Positions 8,109-54,213 of a stretch of 54,213 nt of DNA are shown piece after piece (position 1 is the stretch's first letter; each line of letters starts with the position of its first letter). The position numbers were made by a program, and so were the translations under genes. The DNA is from a virus. The stretch lies in the UHGV virus genome UHGV-0121358; one strand, given 5' to 3'. Under the pieces are notes generated by a model. It ran no database searches, was not told the DNA's origin, and worked only from the letters and a program-made list of their open reading frames with translations.

Positions 8109-8161
8109 TTTCTCACCTTGTAATTTTGTGATCTGCGTCACGCTAAATCATACCAAAACGG

Positions 8162-8190
8162 TTGATCGCGATTTTTACAATATGTATATT
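8162..8190 (+). promoter_or_regulatory. sigma70-like promoter for plus-strand moron cassette
   Basis: -35 TTGATC (8162-8167), 17-nt spacer, -10 TATATT (8185-8190), directly after the L gene start on the opposite strand. Confidence 0.35.
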
Positions 8191-8206
8191 GTACTCAAAA
8201 GGAAGC

Positions 8207-8392: not shown

Positions 8393-8404
8393 GAGGTTAA
8401 CGAA

Positions 8405-8755: not shown

Positions 8756-8764
8756 GGCGGCAAC

Positions 8765-9013: not shown

Positions 9014-9014
9014 G

Positions 9015-9089
9015 ATGTGCGAACATTACGTTCTGGAAATGATCATTATCATTATTGGATTGTTATGCATTCTGCTATCGACACTATAA
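9015..9089 (+). CDS. possible 24-aa hydrophobic mini-protein (MCEHYVLEMIIIIIGLLCILLSTL)
   Basis: Own translation; ATG 1 nt after the stop of the preceding gene, ends 3 nt before the terminator hairpin. Very short, so weak. Confidence 0.25.
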   Translation: MCEHYVLEMIIIIIGLLCILLSTL

Positions 9090-9117
9090 ACCCCGCCGTG
9101 GCGGGGTATTTTTTAAT
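9090..9117 (+). terminator. rho-independent terminator closing plus-strand moron cassette
   Basis: GC hairpin CCCGC-CGTG-GCGGG followed by TATTTTTT. Confidence 0.7.
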
Positions 9118-9295
9118 CGTAGGATAGAAATGCTACTTCTTTGCCATCCCAAGTCGTACAGCCGATATATCCATCACCCATATCATGAAGATACCACGTC
9201 TCGCCGTTATCAGCTTGTACAGTTAGATCATTAATTTCATAGTCGGCAAACAATGTAAAAGCGCCAGTGCGCTCCACTACACAAAAATAAGGCAT
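9113..9295 (-). CDS. hypothetical small protein
   Basis: Track ORF 9113..9325; internal ATG at 9295 preceded by AGGGGAGGGG SD; lies between M and the moron terminator. Confidence 0.4.
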   Translation of the reverse strand: MPYFCVVERTGAFTLFADYEINDLTVQADNGETWYLHDMGDGYIGCTTWDGKEVAFLSYD

Positions 9296-9305
9296 ATCCC
9301 CTCCC

Positions 9306-9659
9306 CTAATTAATAACTTGCTCAAATGTTGCGTTTAGCGTGTATAGCGGTCCGTCTTTAGTCATGCTCCAGCTACGGCAAACAAAAAGCCTTTGCACGT
9401 TATCCATTGACGGCGACCAGTAAAAAGCCTCGACCGCGCCGCGCGCCCTCAAGAATGCTTCCGCCTGGATTGCTACGTTTTCACCATCACCACATCCGGC
9501 GCTACTGCCCTTAAACACCAGGGTGTAGCTATCAAGTAACGGGTTGATACCTTTAACCTGTCTTTGCTCATAACCATCGCCCAGCTTAACAACTGATACG
9601 TCCGGCTCCCTGGTCACGCTGTAGCTTCGTTGCGGCGTCCATCTGAACACTTCCGGCAT
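9306..9659 (-). CDS. M: minor tail protein M
   Basis: Track ORF 9306..9677 begins at GTG; ATG at 9659. FRWTPQ..., GDGYEQRQ and C-terminal FEQVIN match lambda gpM (FRWKV..., GDGYSQRA, FEQVVN). Confidence 0.8.
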   Translation of the reverse strand: MPEVFRWTPQRSYSVTREPDVSVVKLGDGYEQRQVKGINPLLDSYTLVFKGSSAGCGDGENVAIQAEAFLRARGAVEAFYWSPSMDNVQRLFVCRSWSMTKDGPLYTLNATFEQVIN

Positions 9660-9757
9660 AAAACCCCCATAAGTCACATTTTGTATATATCTTTACGCGC
9701 CTCTACGCGAAAAATGAGATCTTAATCACAATGATTATAGCTAGTTTACAAAATGGC

Positions 9758-9786
9758 TTCACATAGTGCGCAACAAGATGTATATA
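9758..9786 (+). promoter_or_regulatory. sigma70-like promoter for second plus-strand moron cassette
   Basis: -35 TTCACA, 17-nt spacer, -10 TATATA; immediately preceded by the recurrent motif TACAAAATGG (9747-9756). Confidence 0.35.
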
Positions 9787-9827
9787 GAAAGCAAGAAGAA
9801 AAGCAGTACCAACGAAGGAGGCCAAAA

Positions 9828-9983
9828 ATGAAACGCTATGTAGTGGTAATGCTGAACAACGCATTCGAACAAGTGGAAATAGCAATCGTTAAGGGCTTCG
9901 ACGACGCATTCAAATACGGTCAATTCATGATGAATGCAAAAGAAGATGAATACCGTGATTTCTTCCTGAAGGCACTCAACTAA
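9828..9983 (+). CDS. hypothetical small protein
   Basis: Track ORF 9753..9983; in-frame ATG at 9828 with strong AAGGAGG SD 7 nt upstream. Confidence 0.5.
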   Translation: MKRYVVVMLNNAFEQVEIAIVKGFDDAFKYGQFMMNAKEDEYRDFFLKALN

Positions 9984-10000
9984 GGATGATGGGGTGAGTT

Positions 10001-10255
10001 ATGAAACTGGTAGCGATTGATAAAAACCTGAAAGTACAGAAAAACGCACAAGACAGGATTATCAAGAAAGGGAAGGAACTGCTTAAAGCATTTTTGAAGA
10101 AAGAGGCGCGCCCCAAAAAGTTACGTGATGGTTATGGCTTTAAATTCGACATCAACCCTGACTGGAGGCTGTTTAGCGAAGACCTAAAAGTCTGGTTAAT
10201 TATCGATCATCTGGAATATAACAGGCACTGTGGAGTCAAAGGGGTGCATAAGTGA
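10001..10255 (+). CDS. hypothetical protein
   Basis: Track ORF; GGGGTGAG SD; basic, no recognised motif. Confidence 0.5.
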   Translation: MKLVAIDKNLKVQKNAQDRIIKKGKELLKAFLKKEARPKKLRDGYGFKFDINPDWRLFSEDLKVWLIIDHLEYNRHCGVKGVHK

Positions 10256-10364
10256 GGTGGGACATGGAGGACGATAAATTCACCTGGCGGGAGATCTGGA
10301 ATATTTGGTTGGTGATGTTCGGCAGTGGTTACGTCGCACGTAACGGAAGATTATAGGAGGAAAA

Positions 10365-10550
10365 ATGATTATTGACGAAACAGAGTTATGTTACGGAGTT
10401 AGGTTAGATCTTGATGAGGATGGTCGGCTATGGATAACCGAACTCATGGGGACTGACACCCTCGTAATTGACAAATCGCAGGCGACGCAACTTATCGCCG
10501 GGCTTCAAAAATTTATAGATGGCACATTTGAGAACGATCAGGAGGATTAA
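10365..10550 (+). CDS. hypothetical small acidic protein
   Basis: Track ORF; strong TAGGAGGA SD. Confidence 0.5.
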   Translation: MIIDETELCYGVRLDLDEDGRLWITELMGTDTLVIDKSQATQLIAGLQKFIDGTFENDQED

Positions 10551-10552
10551 CA

Positions 10553-10840
10553 ATGGATTTAACCGTCATTGGTCACGCACTGGCTGCGGCGGCTATGCAG
10601 GTTGTTATCGGCCTGCTTACTGGTGATTATCTCACTGGCGGCCTGATTGGATGTACATTCTTTTTTGCACGCGAACACACGCAGGCTGAATATCGTTACA
10701 TAGCGGAATTTTGCGGTGGAAAACGGGAAAGAATGCCGTGGTATGGCGGATTATTACCTAAAGCATGGAATATGGCTAGCGTTTGCGACTTCGCCGCACC
10801 TGTATTCCTGTGCTGTTTGATTTATATTCTCACCATGTAA
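10553..10840 (+). CDS. hypothetical membrane protein
   Basis: Track ORF; CAGGAGGA SD; hydrophobic N- and C-terminal segments. Confidence 0.5.
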   Translation: MDLTVIGHALAAAAMQVVIGLLTGDYLTGGLIGCTFFFAREHTQAEYRYIAEFCGGKRERMPWYGGLLPKAWNMASVCDFAAPVFLCCLIYILTM

Positions 10841-10844
10841 AATA

Positions 10845-10865
10845 AAGGCCGCTTATAGCGGCCTT
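10845..10865. terminator. bidirectional terminator hairpin between moron cassette and tape-measure gene
   Basis: Stem AAGGCCGC / GCGGCCTT with loop TTATA; T-rich flank on the minus strand after the tape-measure stop (10870) and moderately T-rich on plus. Confidence 0.55.
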
Positions 10866-10869
10866 AGTG

Positions 10870-13215
10870 TTATTTGCGGCGCGGTTGCAACATCCCGCCA
10901 GGTCTTTGCGATTCCCTTGTTATCATCTTCATTGCTACACGTTCCATTGTTGATTCAAGTCTGCGGCTGTCTTCTTCGCTAAATCCGTTTGTGGTTTGAA
11001 TACTGATACTGACAGGCATACTAAAACCGCCACCGCCGCCAATATCACGACCAGGAATAACCCTGCCGTTCTCGCCTGGGATCATATATTGGTTGCCGTT
11101 AGACGTCTGGAATAGCTCCGGCCTGTTGTGTTCCCCTACGCGGTACATATTGCCACCAATGACGCTACCACCATTAAAGCGACCGCCGCCGAAAATTGAC
11201 GTAGCCAGCGACATGATCGCAGTGAGCGCAGCCGAACCAGCCGCCGCCCAGCTACCGCCAGTTGATGCAGCCGTTGCCGCCGCCGCCGGGGCCGCCGCCG
11301 CCGCGATGCTTCCCTGAGCGGCAACCGCGCTTGCCGTTGTACTTGCTTGAGTTGCCTTGCTTTGTGTTTCCATCATGATCTGATCTGCTATCCAGTCGGC
11401 TGCTATATCAGAAAGTCTGTTGCCAATATTCCCTAGTATATTGCTCCCTAAGTTAGCAAAAACATCGCTCAATGATTGAGTACCGTTAAGCAGGCCGACA
11501 AGCGCATTGCTCATGCCACCTTTAAGGCCATTAACGCAATCACCGATCAGGCCGTTTGTCTGGCTTTGCGCCTGCCATTGCTCCCATTTCAGATCGCGGA
11601 TCTGTTGCTCATAGGCTAACAATGCCTGTTTCTGTTGCGCTTCGGTAGCGCCCAGGTCGATAAGCATTTGCTTACGGACGGCCCATTCATTTTGTACCTG
11701 CTGAATAGGGTCAACCTCGCCTTTAAGCTGATTCATCGGGCTTACTATTTGCGCCCATTTATCACGCAATTCATCTACCGGAATTTGGGCTAATTCTTCC
11801 TTCAGTTCCTTACCTATCCCTTTTTGCGCGGCGCGGTACTCAAGGAGGGTGATTTTACCCTGGGCGAATGCAGCATCAATGGCCTTGCCGTTCTCTAACG
11901 CTTTGCGCATGGCGGCGGCGTCTTTATTGTACTGGTCAGAAACGCTTATACCCTTGTCACCAAGCGTATCCTCTTTGCTTTTCTTGCTGCCACTCTTCTT
12001 ACCCTTTTTAGGCTTATCAACTGGCTTGTCGAATCCGGTGATCTTGCCGTCGTTGGCTTCTGCCTGTTTCTGCATAAACTCATCATAAGCGGCAGTCGCG
12101 TTTTTAATGTCGTTTGCAAAAGTCATGACTTTACCGACTGTAGGGCCGAATTTCTTCTCATTGTTGCTATTTAGTTCTTCCTTGCGCTTATCTACAACCT
12201 CCTTCATCCATTTGTAGGCGTCCATAAGTGCCTTGATTGGCATCACCATTGCGATGATCTTCTCTGCCACCTCGCCAGCCTTCACAGCCACATCATCAAA
12301 CATGTCGATGAATTCGCCACCAGCCGTTTTGAGTGTATCGAAGCAGGTTTTAGCGAATTTAGCGCCCTCACCTAACCCCTTAACGCCTTTTGTGATTAAG
12401 TCGATAGCTGAGACTACGCCATCTGATACGCCGAAAAGATCATCAAGCTGTTCAACAAGACCCATGATTTCGACTTTAAGCTCATTGATAGCCATGCCGG
12501 ATGTGCGCGGCAACTGAGCAAACTGCTCGTTTGTTTCCTGCGTAGCCGCCTGGATTGCGTTAACCATCCTTTCTGCCGTGATCTTGCCGTCCAGCATTTC
12601 GGCGCGGAACTGGCCCATAGATAACCCCATCTGACGGGCCATTGTCTGTACGATGGTCGGGGTGTTTTCAAGTAGGCTGTTAAATTCTTCAGCACGCAGC
12701 ACGCCGCCGTCTATAGACTGGCGGAACTGGCGCATAGAGTTAGACATCTGTTCCGCTGATGCGCCGCCTAACGCCCCCATTTTCTGAATAGTGCCAACCA
12801 GGTTAAGTAATTGCCCTTCCGTAGCTGACGTGTTCTTCAGTGAGATGGCAAGACCTTGCCATAGCTCGCCAGTATCCTTCAGGCTTTGCCCCGTTTCCCT
12901 GGATATTGCTTTCAGGCCGTCGAAAACCCGTCCGGCGGACTCCGCATCGCCCGTAAGCATTTTGATTTTTACGCGAAGCATTTTTGCTTGCTCCGCCATA
13001 TCCATAAATTGGCGCACAGCCTCGGCAGCAATTAGCAAATGGATAACCCTGGTCAGTGCTTTGATGGATGTTTTCAGGGTGTTTACCTGGCGGTCAGCCT
13101 GTTTTGCGCCGCGCTCTATACGGTCAAAGGCCTGGTCTGCCTGTCGTTGTGCAACGAGAAGTTGACCAGTTTTTGCATCAACTTCGTAATAAATTGTACC
13201 TACACTGGTAGCCAT
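10870..13215 (-). CDS. tail tape measure protein
   Basis: Track ORF, 781 aa, largely alpha-helical with Ala/Gly-rich stretches; located upstream of M-L-K-I-J. Confidence 0.85.
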   Translation of the reverse strand: MATSVGTIYYEVDAKTGQLLVAQRQADQAFDRIERGAKQADRQVNTLKTSIKALTRVIHLLIAAEAVRQFMDMAEQAKMLRVKIKMLTGDAESAGRVFDGLKAISRETGQSLKDTGELWQGLAISLKNTSATEGQLLNLVGTIQKMGALGGASAEQMSNSMRQFRQSIDGGVLRAEEFNSLLENTPTIVQTMARQMGLSMGQFRAEMLDGKITAERMVNAIQAATQETNEQFAQLPRTSGMAINELKVEIMGLVEQLDDLFGVSDGVVSAIDLITKGVKGLGEGAKFAKTCFDTLKTAGGEFIDMFDDVAVKAGEVAEKIIAMVMPIKALMDAYKWMKEVVDKRKEELNSNNEKKFGPTVGKVMTFANDIKNATAAYDEFMQKQAEANDGKITGFDKPVDKPKKGKKSGSKKSKEDTLGDKGISVSDQYNKDAAAMRKALENGKAIDAAFAQGKITLLEYRAAQKGIGKELKEELAQIPVDELRDKWAQIVSPMNQLKGEVDPIQQVQNEWAVRKQMLIDLGATEAQQKQALLAYEQQIRDLKWEQWQAQSQTNGLIGDCVNGLKGGMSNALVGLLNGTQSLSDVFANLGSNILGNIGNRLSDIAADWIADQIMMETQSKATQASTTASAVAAQGSIAAAAAPAAAATAASTGGSWAAAGSAALTAIMSLATSIFGGGRFNGGSVIGGNMYRVGEHNRPELFQTSNGNQYMIPGENGRVIPGRDIGGGGGFSMPVSISIQTTNGFSEEDSRRLESTMERVAMKMITRESQRPGGMLQPRRK

Positions 13216-13257
13216 GATTTAACCTCATGCAAAAATGTGATCTGTGTATCTATTTTA

Positions 13258-13297
13258 TACAAAATGGCTTTACTTCAACGACTCCATTTTGTATAAG
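13258..13297 (+). promoter_or_regulatory. promoter-like region with inverted copies of recurrent motif (TACAAAATGG ... CCATTTTGTA)
   Basis: Perfect 10-bp inverted repeat (13258-13267 / 13284-13293) bracketing -35 TTTACT (13269-13274); -10 TATAAG (13292-13297) after a 17-nt spacer; upstream of lipoprotein gene. Confidence 0.45.
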
Positions 13298-13342
13298 GAA
13301 GCCAAAGGGAAAGGTCAGTAAATCAAGTTAGCGTGGTGGGTT

Positions 13343-14002
13343 ATGAAACGGTTAGCAAAAGTGGCAATGATTGCGGCGGTATTGGGTCTGGTTGGTTGCA
13401 ATGAGGATAATGAAAAAGCGCCTATAGTGACCAATCAAGAACAACAAGCATTAGCAGAGAAAAATGCTAAATGGCTTGCAGAACAACAAGCAAAACAAGC
13501 CGCATACGATGCACAGTTAGAAAAAGAAAATGCTGGTAAACAGTGGCTTGTAGTTGAAAGAAAAGATGATATGCAGGACGCAAAAAACGTATTCCTTTTT
13601 GTGAAAGCAGAACAATTCAGCGGAAGTCTTGATGCTTTCCCGACACTGAAGGCACAGGATAAGAATAAACCGGTATTAACAATCGCTTGCCAGGGTAATA
13701 AAACAAAAATGTTCGTAGCATGGTCACACCATGTAACTGACGCCGGGGACACTACTTATATTAACTACCGGATCGGCGTTCACAAAGCTGTAGCTACTGA
13801 GTGGGGGCGGTCAACTAATTATAAAGCTCTTGGATTATGGGATGGCAAAAAAGCCATCCCAATGATTAAAAAAATGGTTAACGAAAAACAATTCATCATT
13901 GAAGTAGTGCCGGAAGCTGGCGACATTGAGAAAGCAGTGTTTAACATTGATGGTCTTTATAACCACATCGACAAAGTGAAAAACGCTTGCAACTGGAATT
14001 AA
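13343..14002 (+). CDS. lipoprotein, function unknown
   Basis: Track ORF; signal peptide with lipobox LVGC (MKRLAKVAMIAAVLGLVGC); opposite strand to flanking tail genes. Confidence 0.7.
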   Translation: MKRLAKVAMIAAVLGLVGCNEDNEKAPIVTNQEQQALAEKNAKWLAEQQAKQAAYDAQLEKENAGKQWLVVERKDDMQDAKNVFLFVKAEQFSGSLDAFPTLKAQDKNKPVLTIACQGNKTKMFVAWSHHVTDAGDTTYINYRIGVHKAVATEWGRSTNYKALGLWDGKKAIPMIKKMVNEKQFIIEVVPEAGDIEKAVFNIDGLYNHIDKVKNACNWN

Positions 14003-14012
14003 GGGGTAAATC

Positions 14013-14387
14013 ATGAAAAACATAATCAAAGCGGCTCTCATTGGTGTTATGGCTTTAGCTCTTACAGGGTGCGCAAGATCAACTGATTTCGTTAAGTTAG
14101 CTGATAAAAAATTGCAAGTTGGAATGACTTGTGAGCAAGTGAATAAAATAATGGGGGAACCACAAAGAATCGAGCATGACGGTAATTATAGTTATCACGT
14201 ATGGTATTCAGTAACCAGCACGATAGGATTTACTTACATGGATGTTGAAGAATTATCCCCTTCAAGGGTTATCGCAAAGTTTGATAACTGCATCCTAAAA
14301 GAATGGAAAGATCGCAGTAAGGCAAAGTCTGTATACAATACAATCACACACAGTTCACCAGGTACAGCAATTAAAGATTTCAATTAG
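14013..14387 (+). CDS. lipoprotein with BamE/SmpA-OmlA-like segment
   Basis: Track ORF; lipobox LTGC; GMTCEQVNKIMGEP resembles the BamE-type motif (pattern recognition only). Confidence 0.6.
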   Translation: MKNIIKAALIGVMALALTGCARSTDFVKLADKKLQVGMTCEQVNKIMGEPQRIEHDGNYSYHVWYSVTSTIGFTYMDVEELSPSRVIAKFDNCILKEWKDRSKAKSVYNTITHSSPGTAIKDFN

Positions 14388-14401
14388 CAAAACGCCCTGA
14401 T

Positions 14402-15088
14402 CTACCGGGCTTTTTCTTGCTCACGATTTTTCATTCTTTCTAGTGCCTTTTTAGCGGCCTCCATTTGCTCGTCATAAGCACGTTTATTTATGTGAATGTT
14501 TGGCTTGCTTCTCTCGTTTCTTTCGTCTGGCGGCGTTTTAGCGCGTACAGCGGCCCTATATCCGGTCATTGTCATATTCCATGCTTCCGATTCTGACAAG
14601 CCCAGGTGAGCAACGGCAGAATAAACGAATTCCAGCACGTTAAAAGTAGGCTTATATTCCCCTTCCCGGATCTCTCCGGCGTCTTCTTCCGGCCCGTCAC
14701 CGATTAAGCCGTGGTACATGCAATGCTGCGCCAGCGTGATAACGTCACTGGTAGGCATCAGTCCTGGTCTTAGCCGTAACTTGCCGGAAGGAGTAAACCT
14801 ACATTCGCCTAATAGCGTGCCTATTTCGTCGTCTGAGCAACATTTCAGGATGTGCATGGACGTTTGCACCATTTCACCATAACACCGCGCCATAATGCGA
14901 TTGCGAAGGTCTGGATCCGCTGGCAATCGTGATGGATATTTGCCACCGTGTATGGTTGCGAAGTATTCGACCAGTTCGCTGTCACTGCCGATTTTAGCCA
15001 TTGCAGCGAAGCAGGGATTAAACACGTACCGCCTGCCGTCTACCACCGCCGCAAATTGTCCCGTTCGAACATGGATCATAGCTGTCAC
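14402..15088 (-). CDS. putative tail assembly chaperone (between tail tube and tape measure)
   Basis: Track ORF; assignment by position only. Confidence 0.4.
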   Translation of the reverse strand: MTAMIHVRTGQFAAVVDGRRYVFNPCFAAMAKIGSDSELVEYFATIHGGKYPSRLPADPDLRNRIMARCYGEMVQTSMHILKCCSDDEIGTLLGECRFTPSGKLRLRPGLMPTSDVITLAQHCMYHGLIGDGPEEDAGEIREGEYKPTFNVLEFVYSAVAHLGLSESEAWNMTMTGYRAAVRAKTPPDERNERSKPNIHINKRAYDEQMEAAKKALERMKNREQEKAR

Positions 15089-15133
15089 CTTAAAAGAAAG
15101 GGGCCAGATGGCCCCGATTGTTAATATTGATTA

Positions 15134-15610
15134 TTATGCTGCTGGGATGTCGCCAACCGTCACCTTGCCAGCACTTGAACACTCAATGGACCAGGTGGAA
15201 ACGTCGTCGTTAGGGTCTTCTTCTTTAAAGGAAGTGCAAAGAAACGGACCTTCAGTCACATCAGCCGGGGAAACAATTTTAAGCCAAACATATGGTTGCG
15301 ATCCGGTTGTTTCGCCTGGGTTAATAACGTGGCGTTTAAGTGCCTTCTGATTATGAATTTCTTCAGTACGGGATACGCCGTCACCTGAGAAAGAAACAGA
15401 TTTGTAAGTGACAAGTGATTCTTTGGTGTAGTCTGCTGATTTATCAGCGGTGGCGTCTGCGGTTTCCCATTCTACGGAAAGCGTTTTGCCGCGCATCATG
15501 CCTAACGCTTTATAAGAGCCGTCTTCAGGTTTCACGTTAGGACAAGCGATAGCGTAGAATACAGCAACGTCGCGGCCTAAAAACGCGCCTTTTTCGCAAG
15601 TCTGAGACAT
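15134..15610 (-). CDS. major tail (tube) protein
   Basis: Track ORF, 158 aa, between head-tail joining genes and chaperone/tape measure; beta-rich composition. Confidence 0.6.
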   Translation of the reverse strand: MSQTCEKGAFLGRDVAVFYAIACPNVKPEDGSYKALGMMRGKTLSVEWETADATADKSADYTKESLVTYKSVSFSGDGVSRTEEIHNQKALKRHVINPGETTGSQPYVWLKIVSPADVTEGPFLCTSFKEEDPNDDVSTWSIECSSAGKVTVGDIPAA

Positions 15611-15623
15611 GTTTAATTACCTC

Positions 15624-16010
15624 TTATCTGGATATGATGGTTTGAAAAGCTACGGTAAAAATAAAGCGCCCTTCTCTTGTCTGCATCGCAGGAATAGCGC
15701 CAACTGGCTTCATGTGTGTAATTTTATCAGTTTTATATTCTGTTAACATACTTTGACGGATGGCGTCGGCAAGGTCTTCCACTTCACTGATATTTGCATC
15801 ATTACGCGCTGAAATAACCAGGATGCGGAAATAATCACGGGTTATTGCTTCTTCACCAGCCGCGCCGCCGTTCTGCTGGATCACGATGTATCTGTCATTA
15901 TTCGAATTACTTCGCTCATTCCAGAAACGGGCCTGCAAAATATAGCCCTCATCGTATCCGTGAGACTGTATCCAGTCTCTTATATTGTCGTAGACTTCGC
16001 TGCGTTTCAT
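15624..16010 (-). CDS. tail completion / tail terminator-like protein
   Basis: Track ORF; position in head-tail joining block. Confidence 0.45.
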   Translation of the reverse strand: MKRSEVYDNIRDWIQSHGYDEGYILQARFWNERSNSNNDRYIVIQQNGGAAGEEAITRDYFRILVISARNDANISEVEDLADAIRQSMLTEYKTDKITHMKPVGAIPAMQTREGRFIFTVAFQTIISR

Positions 16011-16447
16011 ACTTTGTAACCTTCTACAATCTCTTTATAAATATCGTCTGCGTTGTTTGGATCTTCGAATGCCTTGCGCAAAAATTCCGGCTCCGCGTTT
16101 GGATCCCAATATTTACCTTTTCCAGTACCGCCGCCGAATTCAACCCCTTCGCTAGTCTTGCCGAAATGTTCGCGCGGCTGTCCTTTTAATTTACCTGGCA
16201 TATTGTGCACCCATTCAGCATACCTGGCCGTATATCCCAGCCGTAACTGCATACCATCCGCCGTGCTACCTATATACTGAAATTGGCTGTTAATTAAAAA
16301 ACCCGTATCAACTGGGGTCATGTTCGCCGCGAAGCCACCAGCCAGCATCCCTACTCGCCATAACACCTCATGAGTTTTCTTATCTGTGATTTCCTTTAGC
16401 TCCTGCTTTAATCGCTCCCTGACACGTTTAACACCCTTGATAGGCAT
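16007..16447 (-). CDS. HK97 gp10-family head-tail joining protein
   Basis: Track ORF; N-terminus MPIKGVKRVRERL typical of the HK97 gp10-like family as I recall it. Confidence 0.6.
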   Translation of the reverse strand: MPIKGVKRVRERLKQELKEITDKKTHEVLWRVGMLAGGFAANMTPVDTGFLINSQFQYIGSTADGMQLRLGYTARYAEWVHNMPGKLKGQPREHFGKTSEGVEFGGGTGKGKYWDPNAEPEFLRKAFEDPNNADDIYKEIVEGYKV

Positions 16448-44713: not shown

Positions 44714-45769
44714 ATGATTGCCACTTATCATGTGAAACTAAATTGTAAGGACACGCAATTACTATCTGTTAATAATCTTGTTTCTGAACTTGAAATCGAT
44801 AGGCTTAAATCATTTGTTAAATACTCTGATCTTTACGGATTTGAGGAATACAAGGATTTTATTATTGATGGTGATGATGTGTATATCACACCTATAACGT
44901 TTATTAGATTCGTTACACCTGGTAAATATAGACATTATGAATATAATGAAAATTGGGTTAAGCCAGTTATTGAATCTTGTGGATTAGTTGATTTACAAGA
45001 TGTGTTTAATAAATATTCAAATAATACCAGAAAAGATAGTCCTTATGCTTATAATTATGTTTTATGGTGTAACAACTATGTTGAAACTAGTGATACTCCC
45101 GGGCGATGCTCTGTGTATGTGTCAAAGGAAGATGCTGAAAAGTATAAAAAATGGTTGTTCGTTACTCGCGGAGTATCAATAGAAAAACTATGGGTAAGGT
45201 TGTTTCATTCAAGCGATATTGCAGATCCAGATACGTTTTTAAATGAACATCTTAATAATGATGAGTTTACCATTGATTTAAATATTGAATATTTTACAGT
45301 TAAAACAAATTATGGATATGAAAGATATATTAGCGATAAGATAGCGGAAAAGTATCATACATGGGGTCAAAATAAAGGTCTTAGTAATAATTTTGAATGC
45401 GGTAATTATAACGACATAGAAAACTTTATTGAATTAAAAAGCGACAAGAATGTAATTGAGGAAATAAAAAGGGAATGTGACGAGAAATTATCAGAAATGA
45501 GTTATAATTGTAAAAATATGATTAGGAAGCGTTATGAACATGCTGGATTAACTATGTACGAAAAACTAAAAGGAGTTAAATTAATAAGGCAATATCCTGT
45601 TAATGTTGCTGGCAACAAGTATTTTATTGATGGCTACGATCTTGTGAATAATATTGCTGTAGAAATTGATGAATCACATCACAAACGGCAAGCAAAAAGC
45701 GATGCGATAAGACAAAAACGCATTGAGGATTATTTGGGGTGCAAGTTTTTTCGTTGTGCTATATCCTGA
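44714..45769 (+). CDS. AT-rich moron protein with C-terminal Vsr/DUF559-like PD-(D/E)xK endonuclease motif
   Basis: Track ORF 44633..45769 truncated to ATG at 44714 with AAGAGGTA SD; strongly AT-rich codons; C-terminus YFIDGYDLVNNIAVEIDESHH...D..R...I...LG..FFR. Confidence 0.6.
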   Translation: MIATYHVKLNCKDTQLLSVNNLVSELEIDRLKSFVKYSDLYGFEEYKDFIIDGDDVYITPITFIRFVTPGKYRHYEYNENWVKPVIESCGLVDLQDVFNKYSNNTRKDSPYAYNYVLWCNNYVETSDTPGRCSVYVSKEDAEKYKKWLFVTRGVSIEKLWVRLFHSSDIADPDTFLNEHLNNDEFTIDLNIEYFTVKTNYGYERYISDKIAEKYHTWGQNKGLSNNFECGNYNDIENFIELKSDKNVIEEIKRECDEKLSEMSYNCKNMIRKRYEHAGLTMYEKLKGVKLIRQYPVNVAGNKYFIDGYDLVNNIAVEIDESHHKRQAKSDAIRQKRIEDYLGCKFFRCAIS

Positions 45770-46940: not shown

Positions 46941-48362
46941 ATGGTAACTGAGCAAATAAACTCACTACGGCAGGAACGTGAAGCGTCAGTTATCGGCGGG
47001 CTACTGTTAGGTGGCCTTACTCCTAACGCGCAAGATGTTCTCGCCACACTTGATCCTGAAGTGTTCACGATCCCGCTTTATAAACGTGCGTTTGAAGTTA
47101 TCCGGGCGCAAGCCAGAAACAGAAATCTTATCGACGCGTTATTGGTTGGCGATGAGATTGGCAATGAAAACTTTGTACCGCTAATGCAAACGGCACGATC
47201 GTGCCCTTCTGCTGCCAACCTGAAAGGATATGCGCAACTACTACAGGAAGAACACCAGCGTCGGCAAATGCTGGAACTAATGGAAGACATTCGCTACAAG
47301 CTGGAAACAGGGACGCTTGAAGTCGTCAGGGAGACGATGAAAGATTTTGATTCCCGGTATTCAAAATTAAAGGTAACAAAAGATCAAATTATCCCGGTGC
47401 TGTTGCGCGATGCGGTCCAGGAATACACGGAAGTGTTAAGTAAACGCATGGAGTGTGGCGTGAACTCTGACAACATCAAAACAGGGATTGACCCACTCGA
47501 CGAAATGTTAGGCGGCATTAACGCTACTGATCTGGTGCTTATCGCCGGACGCCCAGGGTCTGGTAAATCGGCGTTGGCGTTGGCAATTGCCCGCGCGGCG
47601 GCTGAACGCCCATACCCTGGAGGCGAAGGTCAGCGGGTCGGCGTTTTGCTGTTCACGCTTGAAATGTCGCTCGATCAGATGACTGAACGCGCTATCGCTG
47701 GCGCAGGGAACTTGTCAACGGATTGCTTACGTAATCCGGTAAAACTGGATGACGAAGGATGGGCGCACGTTGCCCAGGGAATGAGCGCACTTGCTGATCT
47801 CGATGTGTGGATTGTTGATGCATCACAGTTAACTGTCGAGGAAATACGCGCCACAACTGAACGAATGAAGCAGGATTATCCCAACCTGGGTATGGTAATG
47901 ATTGACTACATCGGGTTAATGAAGCTGGCTAAGGCAGAACGTCACGATCTCGCTGTAGGGCAATTGTCGTGGTCATTGAAAATGATGGCGAAAGAATTGC
48001 GCGTACCAGTGGCGGCGCTGGCGCAATTATCCCGCCGCGTCGAGGAACGACCGAACAAGCGACCGAACAATTCTGATCTGCGCGATTCCGGCAATCTTGA
48101 ACAGGACGCAGACCGGATCATCATGGTATACCGCGACGGCTACTACAACGAACAATCTGTTGCACGCGAATACATGGAGATTATCGTTTCAAAAAACCGT
48201 CACGGAAAAACCGGGACTGTTTACCAGCGTTTTGACGACAACGGCAACATATTACCGTGTGACCAGGCCCGCGCGGCGTCAGCTTGCATCCAGTCAATGC
48301 AACAACGTCCGGCGGTAAGCCGATTCTCGCCACGAAACAACCAGAATAAAGCATCTTTTTAA
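46941..48362 (+). CDS. replicative DNA helicase (DnaB family)
   Basis: Track ORF; GGAGG SD; Walker A GRPGSGKS, Walker B-like VMIDYIGLM, and C-terminal motifs typical of DnaB-type helicases. Confidence 0.9.
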   Translation: MVTEQINSLRQEREASVIGGLLLGGLTPNAQDVLATLDPEVFTIPLYKRAFEVIRAQARNRNLIDALLVGDEIGNENFVPLMQTARSCPSAANLKGYAQLLQEEHQRRQMLELMEDIRYKLETGTLEVVRETMKDFDSRYSKLKVTKDQIIPVLLRDAVQEYTEVLSKRMECGVNSDNIKTGIDPLDEMLGGINATDLVLIAGRPGSGKSALALAIARAAAERPYPGGEGQRVGVLLFTLEMSLDQMTERAIAGAGNLSTDCLRNPVKLDDEGWAHVAQGMSALADLDVWIVDASQLTVEEIRATTERMKQDYPNLGMVMIDYIGLMKLAKAERHDLAVGQLSWSLKMMAKELRVPVAALAQLSRRVEERPNKRPNNSDLRDSGNLEQDADRIIMVYRDGYYNEQSVAREYMEIIVSKNRHGKTGTVYQRFDDNGNILPCDQARAASACIQSMQQRPAVSRFSPRNNQNKASF

Positions 48363-48441
48363 TTAACTTGAGCAAACGGCTTACCGGAAAGTTTACCGCT
48401 TTCTGGTGGCTGTTTTCGCGCTTAAATTGAGGCTAAAAACA

Positions 48442-48999
48442 ATGAGCATTGAACTTGAAACAAAAATTATCAACATCCTTGAACTGGATGGCATCGACAC
48501 AATGCAGCAGTTACGCCAGAAAACAGGATTATCAGCGGAATATGACGAAGCAGGATGCTTGCCTGAGACAATTAAACACTTAATCGACACTGGCATTGTC
48601 GAGCGTGTATATACATATTTCGGACCACGCCGCCGCTTGCTTGGTTATCGGATTAAATATTTGTATGCACAACGTCGCGATCGTGTGGCGGCGTTATTTA
48701 GTGACTACAGCGTCAAAAAGCGTATGCGTGACATTAGCGCTGAAACAGGTATCCCGTGGAATTATCTTTCGCGCACCCTGCGTTTAATGGTGCTTGATGA
48801 GACACTTTGCATTGATACAAATAAACATGGCCTTAATTTTTATTCACTGTTTAAACCTGGGCGCTTCGGTCACGCTAATGATCTTGCATTTGATTTTGAC
48901 AGCCGCCTGAATGAATACCGGAAAAATAACGGCCTGCTGCCGGATAAACCAGTATTTGAGATCGAAAAACTTAATGGTGAAACTGGATTGGAATTATGA
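48442..48999 (+). CDS. hypothetical protein
   Basis: Track ORF 48406..48999 begins at GTG; in-frame ATG at 48442 with GAGG SD. Confidence 0.5.
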   Translation: MSIELETKIINILELDGIDTMQQLRQKTGLSAEYDEAGCLPETIKHLIDTGIVERVYTYFGPRRRLLGYRIKYLYAQRRDRVAALFSDYSVKKRMRDISAETGIPWNYLSRTLRLMVLDETLCIDTNKHGLNFYSLFKPGRFGHANDLAFDFDSRLNEYRKNNGLLPDKPVFEIEKLNGETGLEL

Positions 49000-49202
49000 G
49001 ACGTGTAATCTTTTATTTAGTTGAAACATTCATTGATGAATCACATTTCCGTTTCCCATGCAATTCTTGCGGCGCGATGGTTTATACACCGCCACTAATG
49101 CGGAAATATAAACACGTAAAATTTAACCGGTTTTTTGTACCAATGCGTGATGCACTGCGCGCGCTGCGCGGTGAATTACGAAACACAATGCGTATTGTGT
49201 GA
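48996..49202 (+). CDS. hypothetical small protein
   Basis: Track ORF; start overlaps previous stop (ATGA). Confidence 0.4.
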   Translation: MRRVIFYLVETFIDESHFRFPCNSCGAMVYTPPLMRKYKHVKFNRFFVPMRDALRALRGELRNTMRIV

Positions 49203-49211
49203 GGTGGCGTT

Positions 49212-49409
49212 ATGGATAAGGAATTAGATTTAACAGTTGAAGACCTGAGCACGATTGCGGAATACATGCGCGGCGATGATCCTGATCGTCCTGTCGTCGT
49301 TGATATGAAAAAACTAAAAAACGACCATATGGCTAGTTCAAGGCTCATTTCTTTATGGGCGATCATGTATGCGCGTGCACCGCGTGAAAATAGTAACGGT
49401 GTATCATGA
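49212..49409 (+). CDS. hypothetical small protein
   Basis: Track ORF; GAGGTGG SD. Confidence 0.4.
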   Translation: MDKELDLTVEDLSTIAEYMRGDDPDRPVVVDMKKLKNDHMASSRLISLWAIMYARAPRENSNGVS

Positions 49410-49837
49410 AACAAATTAGATTTGAAATAGTTAATGACGCTGTGAAAGAAAATGCTATCAGGCAGATAATGGAAATACAGCCTGATAGCAAAAGCCCGCT
49501 GATAATTACCATCCAGGAGAAAACCCGCTCGCTGAGTCAAAATGCGTTGCTTTGGGCGCTGTTAACCGACATTAGCGATCAGGTTAATTGGTACGGTAAA
49601 AAGCTATCGCCGGAAGACTGGAAATCGGTATTCACTGCCGGGCTTAAAAAATATGGCGTCGTCCCTAATTTGGATAAATCAGGCTTTGTTGTGCTGGGAA
49701 CGTCAACCAGCCGGATGAGTAAATCAGAATTCAGTGAACTAATAGAACTGATCTACTCGTTCGGCGCGGAACATGATGTTCAATGGTCGGGTGATACGAA
49801 ATTAAATGATGAATTCATAAAACGCTGGGGGCAATAA
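49406..49837 (+). CDS. ninB: NinB (Orf-family recombination mediator)
   Basis: Track ORF; blocks FEI...QNAI, ITIQE.TRSL.QNALLWA, VFTAGLKKYGVVPNL, GFVVLGTSTSRMSKSEFSELIELI match lambda NinB as recalled. Confidence 0.85.
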   Translation: MKQIRFEIVNDAVKENAIRQIMEIQPDSKSPLIITIQEKTRSLSQNALLWALLTDISDQVNWYGKKLSPEDWKSVFTAGLKKYGVVPNLDKSGFVVLGTSTSRMSKSEFSELIELIYSFGAEHDVQWSGDTKLNDEFIKRWGQ

Positions 49838-50013
49838 TGGTTAGTTATTACATGGCTAGATCAACGGGGATTTTGTACAAAATAGATCGCCATACGGTGT
49901 ACTACTTCAATAATCAAGCGAATGAATGGCGGGAATGTTTTTCTAAGTTTAAATCTGAAATAGAAAACAACCATGAATATTACATTAAGGTTGACAATGT
50001 AACCGTGGCGTAA
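49837..50013 (+). CDS. hypothetical small protein (58 aa)
   Basis: Own translation (below track cutoff); ATG overlaps NinB stop by 1 nt. Confidence 0.35.
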   Translation: MVSYYMARSTGILYKIDRHTVYYFNNQANEWRECFSKFKSEIENNHEYYIKVDNVTVA

Positions 50014-50027
50014 TTGAGGATAAATAA

Positions 50028-50684
50028 ATGAGTGAATCTAAAGCAATTGGCGTGATTAGCCATCGCACTAACCCTGAATGCTACCCATCGTTTGAAGTAT
50101 CGACATGCAGGGAAGAATATAATTTTGGATCATGTTATTTGGTTGGTGTTCGCGCTGATCGCGACACTTATTCTGTTATGGCGGCAAGCTGGAAGTTTGA
50201 TAAATATGCCAATTTATCTAATAAAGATGATGATGGCATGAATAAAGAAAGTGAAATCATTGACGAATTAATCGAAGATGAGCGGCATGATTGCGATACG
50301 CCAGAAGTTACGGAATGGATGGCAGGAGAAAAGCCTCCATGCGGAGTATGGCTTGAGCTTCTAGATCCTGTCGATGGTCGGAAATATGTTATTCTGAAAT
50401 ACAAGTATATAAGTGATCGCCTTGCTCTTTTTGTAGAAATGGATGCGCCTGATTTTGAACAAGCCGGGGAATGGAAGCATTTCGCTCATAAGTTGTATGT
50501 AGATCCGAAAGAAAAAACACTGGCTGAAATTGCGTTTGCACTTGCTACTAAGGTTATCGGCGAAGATGCTGCAAAAGAAATTGATTTTAACCGCGACAAC
50601 GAATTTTCGTGCGATTATCGCAATATGGCGCAAGCTATTATAGACGGATGTATAGGACACGTTGAATATACGGGTGGTGAATAA
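50028..50684 (+). CDS. hypothetical protein (218 aa)
   Basis: Track ORF; GAGGA SD. Confidence 0.5.
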   Translation: MSESKAIGVISHRTNPECYPSFEVSTCREEYNFGSCYLVGVRADRDTYSVMAASWKFDKYANLSNKDDDGMNKESEIIDELIEDERHDCDTPEVTEWMAGEKPPCGVWLELLDPVDGRKYVILKYKYISDRLALFVEMDAPDFEQAGEWKHFAHKLYVDPKEKTLAEIAFALATKVIGEDAAKEIDFNRDNEFSCDYRNMAQAIIDGCIGHVEYTGGE

Positions 50685-50902
50685 TGGATAAGATCGGGAC
50701 AATACTTATTAATCGTGAGCAAGTGCAAAAAATGTTAGGCGGGCTTAGTAAGTCCGCCTTTTTTAAGCTCGTTAAAAAATGGAAAGATTCTGGAACTCCT
50801 TTTCCTGAACCTGTTAAGGGGATGCCAGCATTAAAGCGCGGCGGATCTCTTTACCGTTATCAGGACGTTATTTCATTTTGTAAATCAATGGGCTTCATGT
50901 AG
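50684..50902 (+). CDS. AlpA/excisionase-like small DNA-binding protein
   Basis: Track ORF; INREQVQKMLGGLSKSAFFKLVKKWKDSGTPFPEPVK fits the AlpA/Xis HTH pattern; 3' end overlaps the integrase 3' end on the opposite strand. Confidence 0.55.
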   Translation: MDKIGTILINREQVQKMLGGLSKSAFFKLVKKWKDSGTPFPEPVKGMPALKRGGSLYRYQDVISFCKSMGFM

Positions 50903-52059
50903 TAATCAGCCAGTTTATTCATCGCCTCGATTTGTTCCCTCACATAGTCATACTGATCATATATAGCCATCATTCCCGCCAGTTTATGACCTAAAACCTT
51001 TTCGGCTACGTGTGGCGCAATGCCAAGCGCTGAAAGGTTTGTCCTTACAGTGCGGCGCAGATCGTGACATGACCACGACTCGCCGCCCATCCTTAGCATT
51101 AAATCCCTTGCAGCTGTTTTCGGCACGCTCCTGTCTACCGCTTCATTCCTTCCAGAAAGCACGGGAACGAAGATAAAATTAAAGCCGTGCAAATCCATAG
51201 CCTCACGCAATAAATCAACGCTAACTGCGGATAAACCGCGTTTAAACTCGTTTCTGTTCTTACTCAATGCGCCAGGAACGGTCCACACACAATTATCAAG
51301 ATCAAAATGCTCGCGTTTTGCGTTTGTTAGTTCGCTTGTTCTGCATCCGGTGAATATAATCAGCTTCATCAATATCTGATTTAGCCGCGCCATTTTTGAA
51401 CTGTCTATAATGCTGATTAGATGGTGAATTTCTTGTATTGATAAAACTCGCTTCCTTTGCGCCGGGTTTTTCCCTACATCCTTCACGCGTAGCAACGATA
51501 TGTCGTCACGCTCCACGCGGCGGCGGCGCATGGCATATTTTATAACCGCCTTCATCCTGTTTAAGACTATTCCGGCCTGAACGGGTGCGCCACCATTAGC
51601 AACCTTTCTAAAAATCCCCTCCCACATTATGGCGTCCATATCATCGACGATATAGCTACCGCATGGTCTGACAATATGCTTACTTAGCATCGCCTCGACT
51701 TGCTTATAGTTGACCATGTTTCTTGCCTGCGGTGATTCCATGTACTCCCTAACAATATCTTCAATCGTTGCCCGTGTAGTAACGCGGGACAAGTGCATTC
51801 TTTTTACGATCGATGGATCTCGCCCTGAGTTTAATACCTCCTTATGCTCCGCCACCGCCGCGCGGGCTTCTTTGAGTGTTATTTCTCCGTAAGTGCCAAT
51901 CTTCATCCGTCGCGGCTTGCCGTTGAATCGGTAGCGATACTGAAAAGATATAACGCCGCGCGGGCTTATCCTGGCAGACAATCCGCCCGCGTCCGGGACT
52001 TCTTCCGGGCCGTCATATGGCTTGCCGTGGATGTTTCGTAATTTGGTATCTGTAAGCAT
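50860..52059 (-). CDS. int: tyrosine integrase (P4-type)
   Basis: Track ORF 50860..52107; ATG at 52059 gives MLTDTKLRN... typical of P4-like integrase N-termini; C-terminal R...HDLRRT...Y catalytic region. Confidence 0.85.
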   Translation of the reverse strand: MLTDTKLRNIHGKPYDGPEEVPDAGGLSARISPRGVISFQYRYRFNGKPRRMKIGTYGEITLKEARAAVAEHKEVLNSGRDPSIVKRMHLSRVTTRATIEDIVREYMESPQARNMVNYKQVEAMLSKHIVRPCGSYIVDDMDAIMWEGIFRKVANGGAPVQAGIVLNRMKAVIKYAMRRRRVERDDISLLRVKDVGKNPAQRKRVLSIQEIHHLISIIDSSKMARLNQILMKLIIFTGCRTSELTNAKREHFDLDNCVWTVPGALSKNRNEFKRGLSAVSVDLLREAMDLHGFNFIFVPVLSGRNEAVDRSVPKTAARDLMLRMGGESWSCHDLRRTVRTNLSALGIAPHVAEKVLGHKLAGMMAIYDQYDYVREQIEAMNKLADYYMKPIDLQNEITS

Positions 52060-52105
52060 AATTTGGTCACTATTTGGTACACACATTTTATGCATGGATA
52101 GTATC

Positions 52106-52198
52106 ATGATAGAAAACGATATGACACGATAGAATAAATATTTCTTTTAGAATCAATATGAAGCGGTGACGATGTGACACGATATGAAATGATAGAAA
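52106..52198. repeat. direct repeats upstream of integrase (candidate arm-type sites)
   Basis: ATGATAGAAA at 52106-52115 and 52189-52198; TGACACGATA at 52122-52131 and 52175-52184. Confidence 0.4.
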
Positions 52199-53413
52199 TG
52201 GCGTTATCCGCTTATCGGTTAAGCCGGTAAGTTGAGTGATAAACGCCATGTCGACCATCTGGTCATCCATCAGCGAAACAGGGGTAGCCATGAGAATGTT
52301 CCTCCGGATGTTGTTAAACCAGCCGGTGTGGTCATGAAAACAGCGCGCCACCTTCACTGGCATAACAACCGGGGAGAAACGTAAAAAATAATCGGGAATG
52401 TGGCTGTCCGGAGATAAACGGGGGGATTGCGATGGCAGAGCCGTAGCGGAATCCCGGGGGGTTGTTGCGAAAAGATGCTTCCGCACGCACGCGCGATAAA
52501 GGAGGGAGGACTTTCGTGAGACAAGGGGAAAACTAGCGTTCTGATAATTGCAGAGTTGTTTTCGGAGGTGGTTACAGTGAGTCAGCCCGTTCCTGGCGAG
52601 GAGGAGACTGATATCACCGATGGGATAAGGCTGTCTGATTGGTATTATAAATATAAGAAGTCATCAGAGAGTAACGTAAAGGATTTGCCAGAGTAAGCTA
52701 AGAGAGTAAATCTCTCCGGTAACAGAGCGCTGTGAAGCATTCTGTATCAGAGTGCAAATACATGAACGCTGATGCGTAAAATCAGCAGTGACACGCCAGC
52801 TCCCCCTGTGCCCATTCCTGTATAAGACATGAACTGAGCGTATTAATGCTCCTGCCCTGAGACTGAGCCGGTGAGTGAGGGGCTGAGAAATCCCTCTTGA
52901 CACTGCTCTAACCAGAAATACTTCCCCGGTTGTTGCGGTGCGTCCGGATCCCCGATAACGGAACACTAAGGCTGTATTGCGGGACACCGGGTAAGTGGCA
53001 GCCTGTAATGTGTTCTGTCAACGCCAGAAAAAATGATTTTTCACACGCGTTATAGACTCACTCCTGTGGACCTGGAAGCCCGTAACTCTGCGGTTGCCCA
53101 CCGACTGACGGAACTGACCGCAAACTTTACGAGTGCGTGCAGGGCTTCAGTCTGGTCACCTGAGCGTTCGGTAACGGAGGCGCGGGCGGTAATAGACTGA
53201 TTTTCAGGTATTACCGGCTTACGGCGTGTGGTTGATATTGAGGGGCTGTGAGTTTCGCGTATTTGTCAGAAACCCAGACGAGTTTTCCTGTATGGGACGA
53301 AATAAGGCAGCGGCAATACCTGGAAAAATTTAATATGGTATGAAGGAGAACCTGTCGGTTACGCTTAATATACCCGGTACACTGTCAGCTCAGGGGATAC
53401 ATGAACCGTTATC

Positions 53414-53614
53414 TCACCAGCTACACAGTATATACACACTGACGCTGACAGTAGTCAGCAGGACCACAATAATCAGTGCCAGCAGTATGGTAACGATACG
53501 GTCTGTATTCCGGTAATAGCCGAAGGGGTCGACAGAACCACAATACGGGCAACACACTGTATTATGAGTAATCGCGTTTCCACAGTCCCTGCACTTCTTT
53601 TTGCGTATCACCAT
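53414..53614 (-). CDS. small zinc-ribbon membrane protein
   Basis: Track ORF 53414..53617; ATG at 53614 with GAGGAGGG SD; CRDCGN...CPYCG then C-terminal hydrophobic helix. Confidence 0.4.
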   Translation of the reverse strand: MVIRKKKCRDCGNAITHNTVCCPYCGSVDPFGYYRNTDRIVTILLALIIVVLLTTVSVSVYILCSW

Positions 53615-53813
53615 CACTCCCTCCTCACAGCCTTACCCGTAACCGGTTTTTTACATTAAAAAAACAACGCTGAAAATTCAACCGTCAGTCCGGAGACGAC
53701 CGTTCGGGTTATCACAGAGTGCCTGAGACAGTGTCCTGCCGGAGGTCACCTCAGGGGCTCTGCGCATTTTTTACGACGTGGTTATTCCGTATGAACCATA
53801 CGGAGATTTAACC

Positions 53814-54213
53814 ATGACCTACAAATACAACCCCTTCTGGCAGCAACGTATTCGTGAGACGGTGCGGCACGCACTGAATGTTCATCCCCGCCTGACGGCA
53901 TTGCGGGTTGACCTGCGTTTCCCGGATGTACCGGCAGCAACGGACGCAGCTGTGATATCCCGCTTCATCAATGCCCTGAAAGCCCGAATCGACGCTTACC
54001 AGAAACGTAAGCATCGGGAAGGTAAACGCGTGCATCCCACAACCCTGCATTACGTCTGGGCCCGGGAGTTTGGGGAGTGCAAAGGTAAAAAACACTATCA
54101 CCTGATGCTGCTGGTCAACCGGGATACCTGGTGTCGTGCCGGCGATTACCGCGCTCCGGGATCACTGGCCGGGATGATTAAACAGGCGTGGTGCAGTGCC
54201 CTGGGAGTGGATG
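53814..54213 (+). CDS. YfjJ/YagK-family (inovirus Gp2-type) protein, 5' part (runs off window end)
   Basis: Own translation from ATG at 53814 with GGAG SD: MTYKYNPFWQQRIRETVRHALNVHPRLTALRVDLRFPD..., resembling E. coli cryptic-prophage YfjJ/YagK proteins as recalled; no stop before window end. Confidence 0.55.
   Translation, partial: MTYKYNPFWQQRIRETVRHALNVHPRLTALRVDLRFPDVPAATDAAVISRFINALKARIDAYQKRKHREGKRVHPTTLHYVWAREFGECKGKKHYHLMLLVNRDTWCRAGDYRAPGSLAGMIKQAWCSALGVD

Follow-up and report, generated by a model that had tools for sequence, protein, structure and literature searches.

An mEpimmI-type prophage inserted in an alpA-family gene of an Escherichia coli genomic island

The right end of the UHGV virus genome UHGV-0121358 raises the question of where the phage stops, what kind of DNA it abuts and how the two became joined. 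In this stretch of 54,213 nucleotides, to which we refer in its entirety as the window, a P4-type integrase gene is followed by direct repeats, a short reading frame resembling AlpA regulators and further DNA, which the initial annotation read as a sign that the prophage abuts, or shares its integration site with, a second and decayed mobile element. We find that window 1-52216 is a prophage of the mEpimmI coliphage group (relatives mEp010 and MagusPhagus), nearly whole and in its integrated state. It interrupts an alpA-family gene of a genomic island of Escherichia coli, an insertion that was very probably made by the phage's own integrase (Int) at a secondary site.

The phage/host junction and its attachment sites

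Phage homology ends at position 52216 in every comparison and host homology begins at 52208, so that both overlap only in CCGCTTATC. The phage can be followed unambiguously up to 52210, a G where the host carries an A, and the host from 52217 onward, which places the prophage boundary to within 6 bp. To the right, window 52208-54212 is 99.5% identical to E. coli HH97 (52217-52855 being fully identical), and thousands of complete E. coli chromosomes match this part at up to 99.5%. The genes annotated in the matching flanks encode a helix-turn-helix (HTH) transcriptional regulator, two hypothetical proteins and a protein of the inovirus Gp2 family. The phage hence appears to be nested inside a CP4-like genomic island, with everything to the right of 52216 looking like ordinary island DNA.

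Alignment with the empty sites of HH97 and MCJCHV-1 defined the attachment (att) sites. The uninterrupted attB of both strains reads TTTGTAAAACCACTTATC-GGTTAAGCC, and attP reads GGCGTTATCCGCTTATC-TTTTGAATGG in MagusPhagus as well as in a free form of this phage type (contig L025, see below). The window carries attR, GGCGTTATCCGCTTATC-GGTTAAGCC, and the reciprocal attL, TTTGTAAAACCACTTATC-TTTTGAATGG, is found on two contigs from other samples, L011 and L012, where it is read as TTTGTAAAACCACTTATC joined directly to TTTTGAATGGCTGG. These two contigs were located via the J tail protein of the window; both run past its left end, and their prophage DNA is 99.99-100% identical to window 1-16183. The junction itself recurs in an independent assembly (ERZ28579261, scaffold L009). 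Pattern scans of the JGI metagenome contigs for attR and attL gave no match, but they also missed L012, which is a JGI contig with the attL pattern, and carry no weight. Prophage-free MCJCHV-1 aligns collinearly, at 99.7-99.9% identity, with the attR flank of L009 on one side and the attL flank of L011 on the other; in its coordinates the two flanks have precisely 6 bp in common (L014 13990-13995), and no host base is lost. Judged by its sequences, the att quartet is that of a clean reciprocal and conservative site-specific recombination. The att core and the host flank further show that int and the DNA downstream of it belong to different elements and do not form a single one.

The window stems from a short-read metagenome contig, and its island flank recurs as a repeat in E. 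coli genomes, both of which would fit a junction that is an assembly chimera of a phage contig and unrelated island DNA. We give this explanation almost no credence, as the break falls on exactly the base at which the integrase crosses over in all canonical lysogens and attP and alpA share only 6-9 bp, which is too little to mislead an assembler. Moreover, the junction on L009 comes from another sample and assembler, and the reciprocal attL from two more samples (L011 and L012).

The gene that is interrupted encodes an AlpA-family regulator of 68 residues in HH97, which begins with MATPVSLMDDQMVDMAFITQLTGLTDKWFYKLIKDGGFPAPIK and matches PF05930 with 33.2 bits (cutoff 21) and HTH_17 with 28.9 bits (cutoff 27). 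The AlpA-like frame containing MVDMAFITQLTGLTDKR, which had been described as degenerate, is present on the minus strand at the junction, and its first 27 residues are identical to the intact protein. The other 41 alpA codons are located at attL, past the left end of the window. Since a stop codon lies five codons upstream of them with no start codon between, the gene is split and not restored by phage sequence. The frame therefore is real but truncated, and it appears to be a freshly cut gene of the intact type and not a product of decay. The fusion of AlpA codons to codons of the phage P arm is probably non-functional, yet it is a useful marker of the junction: the exact 67-residue protein is encoded on three ENA contigs, including the source of the window (ERZ1755980 NODE_385). 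Diverged phage-alpA fusions were not found among 122 homologs, in which the other long matches are frameshifted alpA alleles. The target look-alike CCACTTATC is formed by the alpA codons D26-K27-W28. Homologous recombination between the phage HTH gene and the island alpA was rejected as the source of the junction, because the breakpoint lies in attP, 1.3 kb from the HTH gene.

tRNA genes are common targets of P4-like integrases and CP4-like islands, and the flank is island DNA with a pseudogene remnant. Both observations would suit a reading in which two tandem elements share or compete for one att site in a tRNA or transfer-messenger RNA (tmRNA) gene, with the AlpA-like frame and the 1.5 kb behind it as the decayed edge of the neighbor. 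We regard this as very improbable, since the breakpoint falls within the coding sequence of alpA, the 3′ part that is missing there lies at the other prophage end, prophage-free strains possess an intact alpA with island DNA on both sides, and the flank is 99.5% identical to intact copies. In line with the initial annotation, ARAGORN detected no tRNA or tmRNA gene in the window, and an Rfam scan of 48000-54213 yielded no family above threshold. As both the canonical site of these phages, which lies in the abgT coding sequence, and the alpA site are not tRNA genes, this absence is explained. The suspected second element thus exists as an adjoining, older element, but a shared integration site and a decayed AlpA frame are at odds with the att quartet and the intact attB of HH97 and MCJCHV-1.

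Canonical and secondary target sites of the integrase

The mEpimmI phage group was described in 2025 with the integration loci ydaM, abgT and mppA and one unmapped locus, alpA not being among the four, and its type II integrases (mEp010, mEp013, mEp044 and 13 prophages) were assigned to the abgT 3′ end (PMC11893012). The prophage in the window is alike to the type II phages (mEp010, mEp013, mEp044 and prophages in UMNK88, RM9245, 09-00049, MLI107 and others) in its integration module, its attP core and its phage type. It differs in its location, as the type II prophages reside at the abgT 3′ end beside ogt and the prophage in the window in an alpA-family gene of a genomic island. Window 50684-52216 is 95.6% identical to MagusPhagus and 88-89% to mEp010, mEp013 and mEp044. 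The identity to mEpimmI relatives amounts to 84-96% over 46.6-52.2 kb and the tail region, with the left part of the window matching their tail genes, and the gene order DnaB, NinB, a 218-residue protein, a 72-residue protein and int is shared.

A full copy of the int region is present in 13 of 5,426 complete E. coli genomes, and all 13 copies are located at the abgT 3′ end beside ogt. The attB of K-12 at abgT is CCCTATCCACTTATCTTTTTGG. Since the alpA site has only 9 bp (CCACTTATC) in common with it, we classify the alpA insertion as secondary-site integration. In the genome GCA_025783155.2, phage DNA that is 100% identical over 11,357 bp and terminates at the same end base is joined to abgT/ogt. 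The integrase is not a specificity variant, and the failure to use abgT concerns the insertion in the window and not the enzyme.

The exact 415-residue Int protein is encoded on 25 contigs, 16 of which could be classified (ten places shown plus places reported as similar to them). The abgT context is found on L017, L018 and L021-24 and two similar contigs. The alpA context occurs in two forms: next to an IS66 insertion sequence fragment as in MCJCHV-1 (L019, which is the same scaffold as L009, and one similar contig) and, in the HH97 arrangement, beside the zinc-ribbon and YfjJ genes (L020, which is the window, and three similar contigs). About eight of these contigs accordingly are at abgT and about six at alpA, counts to which clonal spread may have contributed. 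A third junction, in which CCGCTTATCTT is followed by GTAAGCATTTAACC, is present on L026 (1-175; ERR1622750), with the same attP position, an attB-like ACAATATCCCCTAATCTTGTAAGC and 142 bp of flank. In ATCC 11775 (L027 2990-3025) and many other strains, this third site corresponds to intergenic DNA of the DLP12 remnant, downstream of ompT. Every context other than alpA loses homology to the window exactly after 52216. The phages inserted at abgT and alpA are 99.85-100% identical to that of the window and the one downstream of ompT 98.4%. Over 17 core positions, the match to attP is 15/17 for abgT, 13/17 downstream of ompT and 11/17 for alpA.

The remaining classified contig, L025 (SRR31366852), contains an un-integrated attP at about 834-1100, arranged as tail-fibre assembly gene, P′ arm, core, P arm and int. 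This related phage is 97.6% identical over 5.4 kb and possesses the identical Int protein. The configuration suggests free or replicating phage DNA in SRR31366852.

A lack of the canonical attB in E. coli was rejected as the reason for using a secondary site: the abgT attB is present in 5,402 of the 5,426 complete genomes, including about 1,195 with a deletion in the abg operon. With respect to the latter, about 1,195 of 5,403 complete genomes lose homology to the K-12 abgT about 55 bp left of the att core (L013 about 3393-3396), with the core and ogt being kept. This common break point looks like a widespread deletion of the abg operon that ends beside the attachment site. A deletion of more than 7 kb at the abgT site has been reported for strain MLI107 (PMC11893012).

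Several points weigh against integration at alpA by the phage's own integrase as we propose it. The canonical attB, which was not used here, is near-universal in E. coli, and the copies at the alpA site all belong to one phage clone, so that independent events are few, namely one or two. The alpA junction is found in none of the 5,426 complete genomes. No single contig examined has attL and attR together, the quartet being pieced together from different samples. Furthermore, the host flanks of the window and L009 are identical for no more than 397 bp (52217-52613), beyond which they differ. This segment is a repeat with several copies, and a repeat-mediated assembly path or recombination between islands might therefore in principle account for the last 1.6 kb of the window. 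Three further contigs have the same gene neighbors as the flank of the window.

The divergence of the two flanks is a difference in island arrangement. On L009 (8693-9715), an IS66 fragment starts 397 bp from the junction as in the ST1193-like MCJCHV-1, and the window continues from 52614 into the YfjJ module as in HH97. Both arrangements exist without a prophage, and the same junction in the two of them most simply reflects two independent insertions at the same codons. This observation is the starting point for a rival reading, in which alpA is a regular second target of the phage, the conserved motif that encodes part of the HTH serving as a multi-copy landing pad and its use perhaps disabling the excision regulator of the island. 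Beyond the two insertions that are suggested in this way, about 6 of the 16 classifiable contigs with the exact Int are at alpA, a diverged alpA paralog (L016) has retained the sequence CCRCTTATC, and some 3,640 genomes contain the flank, at a median of two copies each. Set against this are the zero of 13 complete-genome copies at alpA, the absence of the junction from all complete genomes and the poorer core match of alpA in comparison to abgT. In addition, chance alone would place a 9-mer dozens of times in a genome of 5 Mb, all the insertions belong to a single phage clone, and the two contexts could come from recombination between islands or from the assembly path. We consider a regular second target quite unlikely and favor an occasional secondary-site integration.

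Integration module, arm repeats and flanking genes

The features of the right end are collected in Table 1. The gene of the 72-residue HTH protein and int are convergent and overlap by 43 bp at 50860-50902, as had been noted before, and the annotations of mEp010, MagusPhagus and RefSeq prophages show the identical overlap. A RefSeq-style start of int at ATG 52059 yields a protein of 399 residues, and the gene calls in metagenomes start at ATG 52107 and yield 415 residues.

Table 1. Features at the right end of the window, with their positions, strands and the basis of the assignment
Feature	Position	Strand	Basis
Phage 72-residue helix-turn-helix protein gene	50684..50902	+	ORF (open reading frame); also annotated in relatives, where it is conserved
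P4-like tyrosine integrase, 'type II' of mEpimmI phages	50860..52059	-	Pfam, PHROG, DNA identity to relatives
P-arm motif TTTGGTCACTATTTGGTACACA, 22 bp	52062..52083		Candidate arm-type or accessory-protein site
67-residue fusion ORF: 27 AlpA codons and 40 phage P-arm codons	52088..52291	-	Translation
P-arm cluster 1, three tandem 10-bp units ATGATAGAAA ACGATATGAC ACGATAGAAT	52106..52135		Candidate arm-type Int sites
P-arm cluster 2, three tandem 10-bp units ACGATGTGAC ACGATATGAA ATGATAGAAA	52169..52198		Repeat search, motif count
attR core CCGCTTATC	52208..52216		Crossover within CTTATC 52211-52216
Island AlpA-family regulator, 5′ fragment, codons 1-27	52211..52291	-	Identity to intact 68-residue HH97 WP_000235217.1
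Conserved non-coding island sequence upstream of alpA	52292..53032		Identity to island copies
55-residue ORF, Hha/YmoA-family remnant, N-terminus missing	53033..53200	+	Pfam HHA, PGAP (Prokaryotic Genome Annotation Pipeline)
Small island ORF, CxxC...CCxxC motifs and hydrophobic C-terminal tail	53414..53617	-	Zinc-ribbon membrane protein by sequence
YagK/YfjJ-family ('inovirus Gp2 family') gene, first 133 codons, cut by contig end	53814..54213	+	Pfam, RefSeq

The label of a P4-type integrase is borne out by three Pfam domains, Arm-DNA-bind_3 (PF13356, residues 2-87; 1.4e-19), Phage_int_M (2.8e-6) and Phage_integrase (PF00589, residues 205-371, profile positions 2-169 of 172; 5.3e-17). The protein thereby combines the N-terminal Arm-DNA-bind_3/DUF4102 domain with the C-terminal tyrosine-recombinase catalytic domain that together define P4-like integrases. 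It further matches PHROG 1 (4.9e-64), and the motifs GCRTSE, HDLRRT and LGH and a C-terminal Y were recognized by eye in the unaligned translation.

The neighboring 72-residue gene had been called AlpA/Xis-like. The ORF is confirmed, but this family label is weakly supported, although plausible from the position of the gene: the protein matches the Pfam family Phage_AlpA (PF05930) with an E-value of 0.2 and 12 bits, below the cutoff of 21, PHROG 4745 'DNA binding protein', which the island AlpA matches as well, with 4e-4, and the island AlpA itself in BLASTP with 8e-5 over 28 residues. A search of PHROG with the protein gave no excisionase match, and a sequence search of the PDB gave no match. 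Its homologs are found in E. coli only, are named HTH proteins and are without a precomputed Pfam domain. An AlphaFold2 model (predicted local distance difference test score of 75) has the layout beta-alpha-alpha-...-beta-alpha, and the best Foldseek hits of this model in the PDB were the CarA N-terminal domain, a putative excisionase (2kvv) and RacA, all non-significant with E > 0.5. Solely by its position beside int, the protein is a candidate excisionase or directionality factor.

Within codons 18-27 of this gene, we observed a strong terminator-like hairpin on the plus strand (50737-50759), which has a stem of 10 pairs, including 6 G-C pairs, ahead of T5 and is also the source of a weak Rfam match to L20_leader (E 0.59). 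Expression of the gene might depend on N-like antitermination by the phage. Consensus scans of 50000-54213 for promoters and terminators gave counts no higher than in shuffled sequence.

Between int and the core, the two pairs of 10-bp direct repeats that had been listed initially, ATGATAGAAA at 52106 and 52189 and TGACACGATA at 52122 and 52175, were found again, as parts of two clusters of three units each. Of the six sites on the forward strand of the 54-kb window that match AYGATRKRAM, five lie inside these clusters, with about two per strand being expected, and both clusters are conserved in six related phages and prophages. The 22-bp motif occurs once in the window; its other copy is on the P′ arm of attP, outside the window. 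In the attP of MagusPhagus, the motif forms a perfect direct repeat that flanks the core (L003 4379-4400 and 4610-4631), and the attL of contig L011 carries a near-perfect P′ copy, TTTGGTCGCAATTTGGTACACA. By analogy, the 10-bp and 22-bp repeats may represent arm sites of Int.

From these elements we infer a mechanism along the lines of the lambda and P4 integrase paradigm. On the arms, the 10-bp units and possibly also the 22-bp repeat would be bound by the N-terminal domain of Int, whose core-binding and catalytic domains would act around CTTATC, within which (52211-52216) Int would have exchanged strands with the host. The 72-residue protein would bias the reaction toward excision. The heterology beside the 6-bp identity would make the alpA site a poor but usable substrate. 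In analogy to AlpA and IntA of CP4-57, splitting alpA may blunt the regulation or the excision of the host island.

The CP4-like island segment to which the AlpA-like frame, the zinc-ribbon ORF and the YagK/YfjJ gene belong is present in about 3,700 of the 5,426 complete genomes, usually in several copies. The interval 52292-53813, which had been taken for about 1.5 kb without convincing genes, indeed contains no long ORF, and RefSeq genomes annotate only two small genes in it, one of which is the ORF at 53033-53200. It is not decayed, however, but conserved island sequence with a single Hha/YmoA relic, and when used as a query it matches 3,724 of these genomes. A stretch of about 740 bp within it (52292-53032) varies little or not at all among thousands of island copies in E. 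coli and has neither an annotated gene nor an Rfam match. The relic ORF matches HHA with an E-value of 7.5e-4 and 20.1 bits (cutoff 25) at profile positions 16-45 only; its counterpart is annotated by PGAP as a partial Hha/YmoA pseudogene, and the truncated copy is conserved in many island paralogs. The small zinc-ribbon membrane ORF of the initial annotation corresponds to the hypothetical protein WP_001297900.1 in HH97 and others, with a sub-threshold match to a zinc-ribbon Pfam family (E 0.009). The resemblance of the last ORF to YfjJ/YagK proteins was corroborated by a match of residues 21-132 to PF11726 YagK_YfjJ_C (1.4e-31, 110 bits, cutoff 25.8). In MCJCHV-1, alpA is part of a composite island with the fec operon, insertion sequence fragments and a phytase-like gene on one side and a 200-residue hypothetical protein, a YfjI-family protein, a GTPase, Ag43 and a YeeU/CbtA module on the other.

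Two further observations concern the phage body. The side tail fibre gene at window 1-936 (minus strand) is 96% identical to that of the unrelated phages PhiR40_1 and PhiR41_1 and is unmatched in the mEpimmI relatives, a pattern that indicates mosaic tail-fibre exchange. Between the replication genes and a Lin1244_N gene, window 44714-45769 (plus strand) encodes a phage protein of 351 residues with a G+C content of about 0.30, whose last approximately 60 residues match DUF559 (Pfam 1.3e-4, above cutoff) and PADLOC mREase_II (2.3e-7). The gene possibly encodes a PD-(D/E)xK nuclease as cargo.

Relation to known systems and meaning for the phage group

Events of this kind were recognized decades ago, and the novelty here lies in the site and in the use of several sites by one integrase in nature. 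Secondary attachment sites of lambda and HK022 were reportedly described by Shimada, Weisberg and Gottesman in 1972 and later by Rutkai and colleagues. They likewise show partial identity to attB at the overlap, a crossover point that is kept, reciprocal attL and attR and an Int that binds arm and core sites. In contrast to the lambda cases, which were mostly selected in the laboratory after deletion of attB, the alpA case is found in natural gut-derived assemblies, with a near-universal canonical attB and a target inside another mobile element. The AlpA-IntA module of the cryptic prophage CP4-57, said to have been studied by Kirby, Trempy and Gottesman in 1994, is comparable in that the gene disrupted here is also a PF05930 member of a CP4-like island with YfjI, YfjJ/YagK, GTPase and Ag43 neighbors. 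While AlpA of CP4-57 regulates the adjacent int, the alpA-family gene described here is the target of the integrase of another element. P4-type integrases that target tRNA genes share the Arm-DNA-bind_3, Phage_int_M and Phage_integrase architecture, but they are directed to tRNA 3′ ends, whereas the targets found here are protein-coding or intergenic (abgT, alpA and downstream of ompT).

One integrase protein, carried by near-identical phages, is thus found at three or more chromosomal sites in natural E. coli populations, two of them being inside older mobile elements. This qualifies the picture of one integrase type for one locus that was drawn for the mEpimmI phages (PMC11893012). The finding is also useful for the prediction of prophage boundaries, which often assumes that one integrase corresponds to one site. 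As a wider and unlikely, though not negligible, extension, the alpA genes of the islands might be a recurrent natural alternative landing site of this circulating phage clone, with a relaxed target choice of Int (abgT, alpA and downstream of ompT) that provides the phage with a multi-copy attB. If this held true, the phage would lock the island in place, since its insertion splits the putative excision regulator of the island. Should the loss of alpA stabilize the host island, this would be a case of one mobile element fixing another.

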